IMG/VR virus record: IMGVR_UViG_3300043039_000142
Coordinates: 1 to 29,315 of that record
Direction: 5' to 3' (one strand)
Length of the DNA: 29,315 nucleotides
From: a virus
Taxonomy: Duplodnaviria; Caudoviricetes
Numbering within the stretch: the stretch's first letter is position 1; the number at the start of each line of letters is the position of its first letter. The notes beneath the pieces were generated by a model. That model saw only the letters and a list, made by a program, of their open reading frames with translations. It had not been told where the DNA came from and ran no database searches. The translations under genes were made by a program, and so were the position numbers. Positions 1 to 5,987 of the stretch are shown in pieces.

Positions 1-49
1 ATTGTTTACCTCGTATATCTCGAAGTATTTCTATAAAATCTCTAGCCAT
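1..49 (-). CDS. Partial CDS, N-terminus only (MARDFIEILRDIRGKQ...), runs off window
   Basis: ATG at 49-47 preceded by an AAGGA RBS; frame open to the window edge. Confidence 0.6.
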   Translation of the reverse strand, partial: MARDFIEILRDIRGKQ

Positions 50-1584: not shown

Positions 1585-3312
1585 TTAAGCATAACTGCTA
1601 TACGCATTATCGCTATATACATCACCAGACTCTACTCTTGACCATATTCCACCCTTGTTTTTAGACATATTATGATTGGTAGAATAAGTGTCTAGATAGT
1701 CAGCAAGCCCTGGAACAGGATATCTTATGTCAATCATACCAAGCTGAGACACTGTATCGATAAAGTCATCTTCGGCTCCAAATCCAGCATACGTAACATA
1801 TTTCAATTGATTAAGCGCCTCTCTCATATCTTGAGTATTTCTTAATTCATTAGGAAAAAATATTTTTTTATTCTGGAACATTGGAAGCATCATTCTGAAT
1901 CTCCAGTGTTTGTTTCCACCTTCAAGTCTAGACATGATTCCTTCAGCTCCCTGCTTAGCACCTTTCTGTCTAGCAATGGTAAACCATTCACTTCTCTTGA
2001 GCATCATTTCTTTTAATGCGAATATATGAGCTTTTTGCTGACCATCTACTTCTATCCCGACATCAACACTTCTTCCTCTTGATGTAGCCCAATATTTAAC
2101 CATTCTAAATAGTTCATCATATTGCTCCTGAATGCCTTGTCTTTTTACACATAAATCAAGAAGATAATAATCTTGGTTTGGACCAACAGCCCAAGTTGTT
2201 ATTGCACTAAAATCACTTTTTGCCTCACTTGTAGTAGTAAAGTCAGTGGTTATGTATATATTATATGCACCAAGTCTTGATTCTATATCTGATCTAGAAT
2301 ACCATTCAATCATTGAATCTTGGATCATTCTATCTTCTTCTGAACTAATTCTAAGCATAAGCTCTTGGTTGAATGCTCTAGTCGAATTTGATCCAGCTGC
2401 ATCTTCGTATCTTTCCATTACTCTCTCATAGGAATGCATTTGTTCCCATGCTCCAACAAAGTCTTCTCTCTTTAAGTCTGGTCCGATTCGTTCACATATT
2501 GGCAAACAAACTGGAGTCCAAGAGCCAGATTCAAGAGCTGAGTAAACGGGATCCTCTTTGTTAAATGGAGTATTAACAAGTATAACTTTACCTCGTCTAC
2601 CATCAAGTGCATTAATTGCATCAGAATATAGCATTGACCTAACATTGTTCATTATTGTTTCAGAGTTAGCATCAGCTTCTGTCTTAATAATATCGTCACC
2701 AAATATAAGTTGAGGTCTTTGACCTTTATATCTAATACCCCTGATAGATGAGTTTCCACCTTTGGTTTTAAACATAAACGATCTATCTAAAGCCTTTCCT
2801 TTTCCTTGTCGAAGGAACTCACATTCTTGGTCTGTAAATCTCATGTCTTCAAAGAATTCATTACAAAATATACTTTCCTCACACATATCTCTAATGGTGT
2901 TTGCCATAACTTTAGCACCACCTTCCTGAGAATCACCTATGCCAACAGAAAATGAAACACTACCAAAGTTTGGCATTGTTCCTTTTATTGCTAAATATAC
3001 TGGCATGAATGCAGTTATAATTGTTGATTTAGCTGTACCCCTTGAAGCAATGATAGCTATCTTACGTGAGTTGATTCTAATCTTTTCCTGTATATGAGGA
3101 GCATATGGATAATTCTCTCTCTTTACATTTCCAAAAACTAAATCAACAAGAAAATAATGCATTAAAGCATTACCAACTTCTGGCTCTTTTCCAAGAACCA
3201 ATCTTATGACATTAAAAAAATCTAGAGCATCTTCTGATGGAGAATATCCACCAAAGGTCAAATCTATATTATCCAATGCTTCATCTACATTAAAAGAATA
3301 ATCACTAGCCAT
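1585..3312 (-). CDS. terL: Terminase large subunit, N4 gp68-like
   Basis: Walker A-like ASRGTAKST, Walker B IRGIR...LIFGDD, motif III NTPF, nuclease motifs ITTDF, SDFSA, GIEVDG and EDDFIDTVS; FNQELMLRI block recalled from N4-type terminases. Confidence 0.93.
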   Translation of the reverse strand: MASDYSFNVDEALDNIDLTFGGYSPSEDALDFFNVIRLVLGKEPEVGNALMHYFLVDLVFGNVKRENYPYAPHIQEKIRINSRKIAIIASRGTAKSTIITAFMPVYLAIKGTMPNFGSVSFSVGIGDSQEGGAKVMANTIRDMCEESIFCNEFFEDMRFTDQECEFLRQGKGKALDRSFMFKTKGGNSSIRGIRYKGQRPQLIFGDDIIKTEADANSETIMNNVRSMLYSDAINALDGRRGKVILVNTPFNKEDPVYSALESGSWTPVCLPICERIGPDLKREDFVGAWEQMHSYERVMERYEDAAGSNSTRAFNQELMLRISSEEDRMIQDSMIEWYSRSDIESRLGAYNIYITTDFTTTSEAKSDFSAITTWAVGPNQDYYLLDLCVKRQGIQEQYDELFRMVKYWATSRGRSVDVGIEVDGQQKAHIFALKEMMLKRSEWFTIARQKGAKQGAEGIMSRLEGGNKHWRFRMMLPMFQNKKIFFPNELRNTQDMREALNQLKYVTYAGFGAEDDFIDTVSQLGMIDIRYPVPGLADYLDTYSTNHNMSKNKGGIWSRVESGDVYSDNAYSSYA

Positions 3313-4097
3313 TATGAGTTCTCCTCTACTAATTGTGCATCAAGAATTTCGTCCATATTTATATTTAACTTCTGAACATCAAGAATATTCTTTCCAGATT
3401 CCAAATCAAGCTTTTGTTGTCTAGCAATCAACGCAAGCTGATTAGTCATTTCTGCGTATACACTCTTAGATTCTTTATCCATACCAACTTTAAGATTTAT
3501 TGTACTATCTTCTGGCATTTGAGTAATCTCTCTAAGTTCTTTTGCAGCTAGATGTTGAACATGTGCAGAAACCTTTTGATCTGTTCCAGATGCAATTCCA
3601 TTCATCAAATCAAACTGTTTTTTTACAGCAGCATGAAAGTATGGCTGATATGTAACATACGCTGGAACCATCATCTTTTTGTCTATCTCCACAACCATGT
3701 CGCTATTGTTATATCCAGAAACATGAGAGGCAATAAATCTATTCTCGTTCACTAGCTTGTCATATCTATCTGGGAAAACAATTGCCCATGCCTGTTCATT
3801 GGTAACACCTGGACTATTTTTTAAACAACAATATTTTACTGCATTAACAAGCTGCTCAATCGTGGCTCCTTGTTTTCCAAGTATATGCATTGAACCCATT
3901 AATTTTTCTTCAAAATAATTCTGGTCAATATCAGTATTTAAACTTACATTGTTTATTTCATTAGCAATTTCTTCTGTTGCTCTAGCACCACATCCCTTTG
4001 GAAGGAATTTCTTAATCTTTTCAACTGTAATATTCTGACTATGATTCACTACTGGAAGCAGCGGATCAGTGGTTTGTTTATTTTCAGATTCATTCAT
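3312..4097 (-). CDS. N4 gp69-like protein (putative terminase small subunit)
   Basis: Stop overlaps the terL start; motifs NAVKY, A...FPDRY and VSGYN...VP resemble gp69 as I recall it. Confidence 0.7.
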   Translation of the reverse strand: MNESENKQTTDPLLPVVNHSQNITVEKIKKFLPKGCGARATEEIANEINNVSLNTDIDQNYFEEKLMGSMHILGKQGATIEQLVNAVKYCCLKNSPGVTNEQAWAIVFPDRYDKLVNENRFIASHVSGYNNSDMVVEIDKKMMVPAYVTYQPYFHAAVKKQFDLMNGIASGTDQKVSAHVQHLAAKELREITQMPEDSTINLKVGMDKESKSVYAEMTNQLALIARQQKLDLESGKNILDVQKLNINMDEILDAQLVEENS

Positions 4098-4274
4098 TTA
4101 AAACTCCATCTTGTTTTGTTCAAGCAAAACTCTGTTTACATTTTTATATTCTCTAGCCATTGTTCTTACAGCGGAACTAATATTCTCAGAACCAGTATGT
4201 TTAGTACCGTATATCTTTAAAATATCAATTGTCTCTTGGTCTAAAAGCAATGTTTTTTTAATACCTTTACCCAT
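4098..4274 (-). CDS. Small RHH-like DNA-binding protein (58 aa; not in ORF track)
   Basis: Hand translation MGKGIKKTLLLDQETIDILKIYGTKHTGSENISSAVRTMAREYKNVNRVLLEQNKMEF; AAGGA RBS; beta-strand plus two-helix pattern; stop abuts the gp69-like start. Confidence 0.7.
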   Translation of the reverse strand: MGKGIKKTLLLDQETIDILKIYGTKHTGSENISSAVRTMAREYKNVNRVLLEQNKMEF

Positions 4275-4328
4275 GTTTTTCCTTTATTTTTTCGTTAAAT
4301 ATCATACAAATATTAGTGCATGATACTT

Positions 4329-4400
4329 TTATTATACTAACATTATACATTTAAATGTCTTAAGGAATTCTTAAGAATTATTAGGAATTATTAGGAATTA
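4329..4400 (-). promoter_or_regulatory. Sigma70-like promoter for the RHH-terminase operon, with 10-bp tandem repeats upstream
   Basis: Minus strand reads TTAAG...TTAAG...TGTATAATGTTAGTATAAT; near-perfect TTAGGAATTA repeats at 4371-4400 on the plus strand. Confidence 0.55.
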
Positions 4401-4452
4401 GAAATTAACAATTATAAGATTATTTTTAATTATTTTATTAAGTAGTTTATTA

Positions 4453-4538
4453 TGGAGGAAGACAAGGTGCACGATACCTAATGCTTTCGCATCGCTTCAC
4501 TTAGCAGGCGAGCCTAGAACCTATCTAGTTTATCTTCC
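4453..4538 (-). tRNA. tRNA-Ser(GCT)
   Basis: Acceptor GGAAGAT/GTCTTCC, anticodon loop CTGCTAA, long variable arm, encoded CCA; atypical T-loop ATCGTGC and U73. Confidence 0.85.
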
Positions 4539-4541
4539 ATT

Positions 4542-4615
4542 TGGCATGCGATCAAAGAATCGAACTTTGTCTACGAGGGTTTGGAATCCTGCACGTCGCC
4601 ATGACTGTATCACAT
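4542..4615 (-). tRNA. tRNA-Trp(CCA)
   Basis: Acceptor ATGTGAT/ATCGCAT (A1-U72, G73 as in bacterial Trp), anticodon loop TTCCAAA, T-arm CAAAG-TTCGATT-CTTTG, encoded CCA; anticodon stem imperfect. Confidence 0.85.
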
Positions 4616-4738
4616 ATTTTTGTGTTTAATTTTTCTAGTATATTTCTTTCTAGACTCTATACTTTTAGTCTGTAAATTTATTTCTCTTTGATAATTTTTT
4701 ATTATATTGATATCTCTACTTTGCTTTGCCTTCTCCAT
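4610..4738 (-). CDS. Small basic protein, ArfA/BrfA-like ribosome rescue factor candidate (42 aa; not in ORF track)
   Basis: AAGGAG RBS 5 nt before ATG; MEKAKQSRDINIIKNYQREINLQTKSIESRKKYTRKIKHKNM; C-terminal Y-x-R-K-x-K-H motif; TGA lies at tRNA-Trp positions 4-6. Confidence 0.6.
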   Translation of the reverse strand: MEKAKQSRDINIIKNYQREINLQTKSIESRKKYTRKIKHKNM

Positions 4739-4835
4739 AGCATCTCCTTGCAGCACTCATAGAATCATTTGTAGCACAGCTACACCAGCGAACAGCATTC
4801 TTTCTAGCAAATCTTTTATTATCTTTCTTTGTCAT
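4716..4835 (-). CDS. Small basic Cys-containing peptide (39 aa; not in ORF track)
   Basis: AAGGA RBS; MTKKDNKRFARKNAVRWCSCATNDSMSAARRCYGEGKAK; overlaps the start of the ArfA-like ORF. Confidence 0.5.
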   Translation of the reverse strand: MTKKDNKRFARKNAVRWCSCATNDSMSAARRCYGEGKAK

Positions 4836-4850
4836 TTTATTAATCCTTTT

Positions 4851-5330
4851 TTATAATTTAGCAATAAACTTAAGAACATCATCTAAATCAAAAGTATTTC
4901 TTAGATAATTTGCTCCAAGAGTTGTAAACTGTACGTTTCCTTCTATATATCCTCTATTGTTATCTATTCTATCAACAGAAGCTTGATCAAGTTCTTTAGA
5001 AGTTCGTTGTTTTGCATGATGCATCTCTATGTTTGTTATTGCACACAAGCCTTTTTGTTTGTTCCATATAGTTTCTAAATATTCAGCACTAATTATAGGT
5101 TGTGTTTCATTGAAAGAAAACTTACGCTTTCTAATGTTTATCAAATAGTGGTTGAATGGATTAGACTTTTCTATAGCTTTTTTAACTACATATTCTTTTC
5201 CACAATCTCTACTACAGCAATGAACGCCATTTCTATCTATTGTTTTCTTTATAAGCCTATTTTCTTTACTAAAAAATACACCACAAATTTTGCATTCTAC
5301 TGTTGAGCTTGGTCTATTATATTTACTCAT
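4851..5330 (-). CDS. His-Me finger/HNH-like endonuclease with N-terminal Cys cluster (putative free-standing homing endonuclease)
   Basis: CKICG...CCSRDC; Q.GLCAIT...ASVDRIDNNRGYIEGNVQ motif; located inside the tRNA array. Confidence 0.75.
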   Translation of the reverse strand: MSKYNRPSSTVECKICGVFFSKENRLIKKTIDRNGVHCCSRDCGKEYVVKKAIEKSNPFNHYLINIRKRKFSFNETQPIISAEYLETIWNKQKGLCAITNIEMHHAKQRTSKELDQASVDRIDNNRGYIEGNVQFTTLGANYLRNTFDLDDVLKFIAKL

Positions 5331-5397
5331 ATTTGTCCTTGGATAATTGTTTTATACTTGAAGTATAACACAGTTCTCCTTAACATTAACTTTACAA

Positions 5398-5472
5398 TGG
5401 AAGAGGATGTTGGATTCGAACCAACGGCTCCCTCATTAACAGTGAGGTCCCTTACCACTTGGGTACATAGCT
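5398..5472 (-). tRNA. tRNA-Asn(GTT)-like, chimeric or pseudo (acceptor stem does not pair)
   Basis: Perfect anticodon arm CCTCA-CTGTTAA-TGAGG and T-arm GTTGG-TTCGAAT-CCAAC with CCA, but 5' AGCTATG versus 3' ATCCTCT gives only 2 of 7 pairs. Confidence 0.7.
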
Positions 5473-5475
5473 ATT

Positions 5476-5547
5476 TGGTGGAGAATAACGGTAACGATCC
5501 GTTTCTTCCTGATTGCAAGTCAAGAGTCCAGCCCATCTGGATTCCAC
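5476..5547 (-). tRNA. tRNA-Ala(TGC), non-canonical
   Basis: Anticodon loop CTTGCAA, G3:U70, A73 and CCA present; T-loop ATCGTTA, U2/C71 mismatch and shortened acceptor-to-D-arm linker. Confidence 0.7.
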
Positions 5548-5557
5548 AATTTTTTTT

Positions 5558-5631
5558 TGGAGCGAGATAATGGAGTCGAACCCTTCTAGTCGATTTGGAG
5601 GACCGATACATAACCGCTCTGACAATCTCGC
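5558..5631 (-). tRNA. tRNA-Gly(TCC)
   Basis: Acceptor GCGAGAT/ATCTCGC, U73, anticodon loop CCTCCAA, T-loop TTCGACT, CCA. Confidence 0.9.
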
Positions 5632-5642
5632 ATTATTACTTA

Positions 5643-5718
5643 TGGTGTGCCTGACAGGACTTGAACCTGCAACGACATGGTTAAAAGCCATGGGTGTTAC
5701 CATTACACTTACAGACAC
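5643..5718 (-). tRNA. tRNA-Lys(TTT)
   Basis: Acceptor GTGTCTG/CAGGCAC, anticodon arm CATGG-CTTTTAA-CCATG, T-loop TTCAAGT, CCA. Confidence 0.92.
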
Positions 5719-5831
5719 ACATCAACAATTCGTATTGTTTAAAGACACACCATAAGTTTATTGTTATCTACTTATGATATGTCTATGATTTTTCCAATCT
5801 TCATAGTTAATCCTATTGTTTAATTTATTTT

Positions 5832-5908
5832 TGGTACGTAATCCAGGAATCGAACCTAGCAGTCCTTCCTTGTAAGGGAAGTTCCTAACCAATCGGCGTC
5901 TATCACGT
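5832..5908 (-). tRNA. tRNA-Val(TAC)
   Basis: Acceptor ACGTGAT/ATTACGT, anticodon arm CTTCC-CTTACAA-GGAAG, T-loop TTCGATT, A73, CCA. Confidence 0.9.
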
Positions 5909-5912
5909 ACAC

Positions 5913-5987
5913 TAGAGTCCACAGTAAGAATTTAACTTACGTATTCCTATTTTGCAGATAGGTGCAATAACGCTCTGCCATATGGAC
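5913..5987 (-). tRNA. tRNA-Cys(GCA)
   Basis: Acceptor GTCCATA/TGTGGAC, U73, anticodon arm CCTAT-CTGCAAA-ATAGG; 3' end reads CTA instead of CCA; T-loop TTAAATT. Confidence 0.85.

Follow-up and report, generated by a model that had tools for sequence, protein, structure and literature searches.

Stop codons that fall inside tRNA genes are a real, recurrent and statistically enriched layout among ArfA-like phage genes. The window analyzed here, a 29,315-nucleotide stretch of viral DNA, carries a conserved 42-codon ORF with a KH tail that runs into a tRNA-Trp gene, and the same layout recurs, and is enriched, in unrelated phages. From sequence comparison, we narrowly favor the view that this small gene encodes a ribosome-rescue factor of the ArfA/BrfA type, whose message would be made nonstop by RNase P and whose product would be tagged and destroyed via tmRNA unless that system is overloaded.

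The small gene and the tRNA-Trp gene that it enters

The features of the window that are discussed below all lie on the minus strand:

1585..3312, minus strand: N4-like terminase large subunit (profile match)
4453..4538, minus strand: degenerate tRNA-Ser(GCT), the last gene of the cluster, called by ARAGORN at threshold 80 only
4542..4615, minus strand: degenerate tRNA-Trp(CCA), called by ARAGORN at threshold 90 only; acceptor stem, T-arm, G73 and CCA intact, D and anticodon arms weak
4610..4738, minus strand: 42-codon ORF for a basic peptide of the phrog_18092 family, an ArfA/BrfA-like candidate (translation, profile match, homologs)
4615..4616, minus strand: predicted RNase P site, with tRNA +1 at 4615 and a leader ending in A-2 U-1 (sequence anatomy)
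4622..4642, minus strand: Y-x-R-K-x-K-H motif, codons 33–39 (column conservation in 130 homologs)
4658..4669, minus strand: candidate RF2-binding beta-strand, codons 24–27 (family consensus TKVV), suggested by conservation, BrfA spacing and the bridge alignment
4716..4835, minus strand: 39-codon ORF overlapping the start of the small gene, without family match and with a GC-richer end, which may be spurious
4744..4749, minus strand: Shine-Dalgarno-like AAGGAG, 5 nt 5' of the ATG (sequence)
4851..5330, minus strand: gene for an HNH-type endonuclease that separates the upstream tRNA cluster from the small gene (phrog_3322, E 4e-17)
5399..5987, minus strand: upstream tRNA cluster (Cys, Lys, Gly, divergent others and an Asn/Ser chimera), on the same strand as the small gene

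The ORF 4738–4610 has the translation MEKAKQSRDINIIKNYQREINLQTKSIESRKKYTRKIKHKNM and ends in ...YTRKIKHKNM-stop. As the initial annotation had stated, it follows a ribosome-binding site and its final ATG TGA are nucleotides 1–6 of the tRNA-Trp(CCA) gene 4615–4542; we confirmed this arrangement, with the qualification that the tRNA-Trp is degenerate. The predicted cut at tRNA +1 falls exactly 3' of codon 41 (Asn41) and would leave two residues after KH and no stop; the full and the cut products of the gene differ by a single Met. An identical junction was found in the sister contig L006/L015 (99.9% identity) as well as in one contig, covering 3730–5410, of a run that is labelled shale gas metagenome and may be the window's own source. 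A search for RNA runs that contain the stretch found none. TGA is the stop codon of just 3 of the 28 long ORFs in the window, and because of this rarity and the enrichment of stops inside tRNAs in ArfA-like genes relative to control ORFs (see below), the overlap is judged to be more than chance. When TGA was read as Trp (NCBI table 4), the ORF gained only 13 codons, up to a TAG within the tRNA, and nothing suggests such recoding. No minus-strand terminator-like site was detected inside the ORF or anywhere in the region 5987–4453, and the upstream tRNA cluster and the small gene are probably carried on one transcript. An AlphaFold model of the lone peptide (pLDDT 82, pTM 0.40) contains one helix at residues 10–16 followed by an extended segment; it gave no fold match and no strand at the candidate RF2-binding segment.

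The tRNA-Trp gene was called neither by ARAGORN with default settings nor by Rfam (RF00005) even at E≤1. It was seen at ARAGORN threshold 90 only, as a possible pseudogene, and with an ARAGORN score of 90 it is the weakest of the 22 tRNAs examined. Position 8 is an A, the D-stem is 3 bp long and the anticodon stem contains two mismatches; the pairing probability of its acceptor stem is ~0.22 in the unmodified fold and its folding z-score is +0.8, and the other tRNA-like genes of the cluster fold equally weakly. The parts that are kept comprise a 7-bp acceptor stem (with one G.U), the A1-U72 pair, a perfect 5-bp T-stem, G73 and an encoded CCA, among which A1-U72 and G73 are Trp identity elements. 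RNase P reads mainly the acceptor stem, the T-arm and the CCA. The features of a tRNA-like RNase P substrate are present in the sequence, namely the acceptor stem, the T-arm, the 3' CCA and a single-stranded leader.

Judging from its terminase large subunit (1585..3312), the window is a fragment of an N4-like phage genome. Six other loci with N4-like terminases had no gene with the tail motif in the DNA examined. The one indication of a host, the distribution of the peptide's family, points to Campylobacterota; a 676-aa protein of the window, which was not found in 151 genomes of this candidate host phylum, is uninformative in this respect. Positions 5399–5473, the last of the upstream tRNAs, form a chimeric tRNA, the 5' part of which is tRNA-Asn and the 3' end tRNA-Ser-TGA. 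On the sister contig L015 (positions 1–1240), the site of the chimera is occupied by an intact tRNA-Ser and at least 10 additional tRNAs, and both joints are present in run X1; either the assembly took a shortcut at a shared T-arm, or the chimera is a genuine deletion variant.

The peptide family and its similarity to rescue factors

That the small gene is real, as the initial annotation had proposed, is borne out by a match to phrog_18092 over residues 8–40 (E 6.1e-11) and by 227 homologs at E≤0.01, with 206 cluster representatives at E≤0.001. The family, which is unnamed, is centered on the Campylobacterota. It occurs in Campylobacter and Vibrio phages (40 and 6 phage records, respectively, match the peptide) and in contigs of Helicobacter, Sulfuricurvum and Nautiliaceae, and it was found in 30 of the 401 genomes from the phylum to which the Helicobacter locus L048 belongs. 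Across 130 aligned members, R8, I12, E19, K30, Y33, R35, K36, K38 and H39 are each at least 90% conserved; within the motif, R35 and K38 are invariant and Y33, K36 and H39 are conserved at 96–97% (H39 at 97%). The tail that follows the motif ranges from 3 to more than 30 residues. The N-terminal half (R-D-x-N-I...R-E-I-N-L) is strongly conserved and was unrelated to ArfA in every direct test.

The peptide is also found as the N-terminus of 115–162-aa proteins (P0197, P0233, P0181). In two cultured Fletchervirus phages of Campylobacter (L001, L052), a homolog with 61% identity is flanked by the genes for the clamp loader and RNase H and has its stop within the next gene; these cultured phages are a tractable source of the protein. 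On a viral contig (L067, positions 55–715), a tmRNA, a tRNA-Cys and a close homolog of the small gene lie in a row.

The claim that the product resembles ArfA and BrfA was upheld in part. K38-H39 is the counterpart of the KH motif, the role of which in ArfA and BrfA is described in the cited passages (PMC6881298, PMC8012679), and this motif is kept in the family (K in 100% and H in 97% of the 130 members), but profile searches, the check that the initial annotation had suggested, returned no direct match to ArfA or BrfA. The peptide did not match PF03889 (ArfA), which was reached by 1 of the 130 homologs at E 0.01; NCBIfam gave no match for it, and a PDB search with the peptide and with the family profile yielded no ArfA or BrfA chain. 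An hhalign comparison of the family profile with the ArfA-type profile A5 was not significant (3 of 60 shuffles reached its score).

An indirect link runs via bridging phage families. The family profile aligned at an hhalign probability of 97% with A6, a profile of 10 other phage peptides, and 0 of 60 shuffles reached this value. The only PDB matches of A6 were four E. coli ArfA chains (E 0.03–0.05), aligned from the RF2-binding strand to KH; A6 aligns over the segment of ArfA that recruits RF2 (the aromatic F25 and the strand Q27–E30) and to L22–I27 of the small-peptide family. Because A6 and a second bridging set, A4, were gathered by the tail motif, which carries most of the similarity, the bridge is partly circular. 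We infer that the peptide may work like ArfA and BrfA; by sequence, it is a member of neither. Since the KH motif is itself the sole outstanding similarity between ArfA and BrfA, as stated in the cited passage (PMC8012679), the failed profile test leaves the same mode of action possible.

Other named groups add little to this picture. DUF7230 (PF23876) is touched by 95 of the 130 family members at E≤0.5, over the tail; the peptide scores 10.2 bits against a cut-off of 27 bits, its Vibrio phage homolog 26.8, and no paper on the function of DUF7230 was found. On the profile and PDB searches, direct membership of the peptide in ArfA, BrfA and DUF7230 was rejected. The profiles phrog_18092, to which the peptide belongs, and phrog_2701 comprise unnamed small phage proteins. 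In the ESM Atlas, unnamed clusters and one DUF7230 cluster were retrieved at 0.90–0.92, with a low recognition value, and serve as a lead only.

Stop codons of close relatives and of other phage genes

Among the family loci examined (41 distinct at 75% identity), the stop lies in a tRNA only in this phage and its sister contig. Five phage homologs that were fetched lie between ordinary genes or on fragments, with no tRNA at the stop (L004 being outside the tRNA scan), and the homologs in L055 and L058 stop 2 nt before a tRNA-Asn or a tRNA-Thr. The initial annotation had named homologs with stops outside tRNAs as a result that would count against it; this was partly borne out, as close homologs do stop outside tRNAs, but the layout is present in 10 of 17 other tRNA-abutting lineages. 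Hairpins below -10 kcal/mol at the 3' end were found in 8 of 41 loci of the close family versus 16 of 45 control ends; with no such excess, a nonstop design is not family-wide, and a hairpin ahead of the stop as a general feature of the close family gained no support.

Individual relatives do carry structures near the motif. In L047/L077 (Sulfuricurvum), L008, L031 and L056, long in-frame hairpins (about -23 to -38 kcal/mol) directly follow KH, and in L047 the hairpin is followed by a 32-residue tail; these may represent an arfA-like RNase III or terminator design within the family. In several ArfA-like genes that retain the stop (L482, L483, L484 and L485, also L095, L082 and L048), the codons for KH form an 8–11-bp stem with the terminal codons and the stop codon, possible roles of which are those of a cleavage site, stop occlusion or 3'-end protection.

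Viral contigs were scanned for the tail motif with a tRNA T-loop located 45–75 nt (33 of 64 parts) or 76–106 nt (32 of 64 parts) downstream; further scans covered a second T-loop (61 of 64 parts) and, as the fourth, the ArfA-type KGKGSY motif. The first three scans gave 359 loci, 46 of them with a tRNA call at the T-loop, and 29 of these were kept as ArfA-like (15 with the stop inside the tRNA and 14 outside). The other 17 rows (ten 'inside' and seven 'outside': L130, 135, 152, 155, 156, 179, 207, 229, 264, 277, 284, 309, 316, 324, 335, 336 and 411) were excluded on visual inspection because the gene was not ArfA-like or the tRNA not real. From the fourth scan, 7 of 12 rows were without a tRNA and were dropped. 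The stop lies inside the tRNA, or across its +1, in 10 of the 17 other tRNA-abutting ArfA-like phage lineages, which were grouped by eye and not on a tree; the remaining 7 stop 2–20 nt before +1. The stop-inside lineages are:

L140/L182/L209: tRNA-Arg
L141: tRNA-Arg, weak family matches only
L153 group: His-like tRNA
L166: tRNA-His
L218: tRNA-Gly
L215: tRNA-Ala
L230/L308: tRNA-Lys
L383: tRNA-Met, weak family matches only
L503: tRNA-Glu, no Pfam match and without KH
L504: tRNA-Arg

Because short-distance scans favor overlaps by design, the fair figure is that of the two scans covering both distance ranges, in which 7 of 12 lineages have the stop inside. The stop-inside peptide of L218 exceeds the ArfA Pfam cut-off of 25.5 bits with a score of 25.6; the profile of its 8-member family, two of which are stop-inside, matches E. 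coli ArfA chains at E 6e-7. L218 and L166 combine an ArfA homolog with a good tRNA, and L140 and L182 are cases with a lone tRNA. The related peptides of L140 and L182 both enter a tRNA-Arg of one kind, each in a frame of its own, and neither stops before +1. L469, L470 and L477 each carry a single tRNA, the overlapped one, in 12–20 kb. This frame change and these lone tRNAs disfavor crowding as the cause. Of the 11 stop-inside loci of other phages that were submitted to Rfam, 10 score 30.6–73.6 bits and the His-like one is missed. No cultured phages matched two of the stop-in-tRNA peptides.

The baseline covered 31 regions with 320 tRNA calls: the window, L015, L021 and 28 regions taken from 25 of these phage records. 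Control ORFs were those of at least 30 codons that end within ~33 nt of a tRNA +1 (n=70, 17 with a PHROG match). Controls that end inside the tRNA numbered 0 of the 17 PHROG-validated genes, 2 of 44 with a ribosome-binding site and 7 of 60 when the longest ORF per tRNA was taken (unvalidated), which against 7/12 corresponds to Fisher p values of 5e-4, 1e-4 and 1e-3, respectively; as the lineages are not tree-defined and the controls are mostly longer proteins, these values are a guide only. The longer control genes, which are less tolerant of tail changes, may inflate the contrast.

Two further observations concern the overlapped genes. The tRNA-like gene overlapped in L153, L160, L164, L196 and L208 combines an unusual ATG anticodon with a short D-arm and escapes detection by Rfam; it may serve only as a processing signal. 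Many full-length products of L499–L501, L233, the L237 group, L166 and L308 end in -AA, -CA or -VA. The end of the tmRNA degradation tag resembles termini of this type, and these ends are possibly a built-in degron on the uncut product.

Predicted control by tRNA processing, alternatives and known systems

Under the reading that we favor, the tRNA cluster would be transcribed as one precursor, which host RNase P would cut between 4616 and 4615, leaving a message without a stop. Ribosomes would stall after Asn41 with an empty A site, and tmRNA would tag the 41-mer for proteolysis. With tagging saturated or blocked during infection, untagged peptide would accumulate, bind the empty mRNA channel via its basic KH tail and recruit a release factor, probably RF2; rescue systems of this type are species-specific (PMC8012679). 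Because tRNA maturation would strip the stop from the message, the protein would accumulate only on failure of the main rescue system. The exact prediction is an mRNA 3' end at 4616 and a 41-residue tagged product. The nonstop reading has two weak points in this window, the poor tRNA-Trp and the lack of a penalty on the full-length 42-mer. Control would be leaky, since ribosomes on the uncut precursor would make the full 42-mer without a degradation tail, and, as that product carries no penalty, active protein would be made whenever a ribosome arrives at the TGA ahead of tRNA folding.

The overlap might instead be a packing accident that is tolerated in a tRNA cluster and regulates nothing, the peptide still being rescue-type or ribosome-binding. 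The tail after KH would then be dispensable, and after loss of the old stop the frame would have run to the first stop in a decaying tRNA-Trp, with the protein made constitutively from the uncut precursor. We regard this as rather unlikely but worth serious attention. In its favor, the overlap is missing from all close homologs, the length of the tail after the motif varies widely, the stop immediately precedes a tRNA in two close homologs and in 7 of 17 lineages, the tRNA-Trp is of near-pseudogene quality and the two products differ by one Met. Against it, 0 of the 17 validated controls from these genomes end inside a tRNA, tRNAs that stand alone outside clusters are overlapped too, the overlap has persisted through a change of frame (L140 versus L182), and the parts of the tRNA-Trp that are kept are those that RNase P needs. 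Those same parts make it very improbable that the tRNA-Trp is a dead, unprocessed pseudogene, the stop of which would always be read in an ordinary constitutive small gene. Although the gene is missed by default ARAGORN and Rfam, has A8 and two anticodon-stem mismatches, folds with a z-score of +0.8 and lies next to a tRNA-Ser that is also degenerate, its acceptor stem, T-arm, discriminator and CCA are intact, its leader ends in A-U, and other tRNA-like genes of the cluster fold just as weakly.

The nonstop message could also be real but have a purpose other than back-up rescue, with the peptide acting as a channel plug, as an occupier of ribosomes or tmRNA (hibernation-like or as a modulator of host translation) or as a sensor of tmRNA load. 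Such a role appears improbable to us, as the spacing of tail and strand fits BrfA, the bridge aligns over the RF2-binding strand of ArfA, and nonstop expression makes most sense for a rescue factor; in its favor, the similarity to ArfA is confined to the channel-binding tail, and none of the direct tests related the strongly conserved N-terminal half to ArfA.

ArfA and BrfA come into play only upon failure of trans-translation, and two designs of this switch are known, an RNase III site or a terminator within the gene (PMC8012679, PMC6881298). In the titles and abstract starts of the open-access papers retrieved, we found neither an RNase P-made nonstop message for a rescue factor nor a stop codon inside a phage tRNA, in agreement with the initial annotation, which did not recognize this route as described. 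The stop-in-tRNA layout would thus be a new form of a known control principle, a nonstop message under tmRNA control. More tentatively, and with some doubt, we suggest that unrelated phages have repeatedly wired back-up rescue genes to tRNA maturation, with RNase P as a third route to nonstop messages, that the peptide represents an unnamed release-factor-recruiting family of Campylobacterota and their phages, and that the decaying tRNA-Trp is kept mainly as a cleavage signal. If this is true, a stop codon inside a tRNA would be a third switch design, one at which many phages arrived independently, and certain tRNA genes of phages, including decaying ones, would serve a purpose other than decoding. 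The layout suggests that phages protect themselves against a tmRNA system that is saturated or sabotaged during infection. The peptide would also provide a candidate rescue family for the Campylobacterota; in the cited survey, arfA was found in none of 191 genomes from the Aquificota, Campylobacterota and Deferribacterota (PMC11633108).

Pelagiphage HTVC027P has a gene with an ArfA domain, gp30, that is expressed during infection (PMC12753301); it is known as an annotation only, and the cited passage mentions neither tRNA overlap nor nonstop control. Like ArfA (E. coli YhdL; PF03889; PDB 5MDV, 5MGP, 5H5U, 5U4I), the peptide of the window is small and basic, has a predicted short helix followed by an extended segment, and its Y-x-R-K-x-K-H resembles the ArfA tail YMRKGKH. 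In contrast to ArfA, it is phage-encoded and lacks both the GKG segment and the hydrophobic unstable tail. Its message is predicted to be nonstop, like the known nonstop messages of arfA and brfA (PMC8012679, PMC6881298), but the ends of the latter are made by RNase III or a terminator, whereas here RNase P is predicted to act at the tRNA. Other phage genes with a stop in a tRNA are ArfA homologs by Pfam and PDB search. The comparison with BrfA (B. subtilis YqkK; PDB 6SZS according to PMC8012679) is similarly mixed. The peptide has no sequence match to BrfA PDB chains and no counterpart of the long N-terminal part of BrfA with its helix 4–17, and the internal terminator used by BrfA is absent from the ORF of the window. 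The KH motif, however, is common to both, and with beta1 at 35–38 and K49-H50 in BrfA (PMC6881298), the distance from the start of the strand to the K of KH is 14 residues in BrfA (35 to 49) and likewise for the candidate strand in the peptide of the window (24 to 38).
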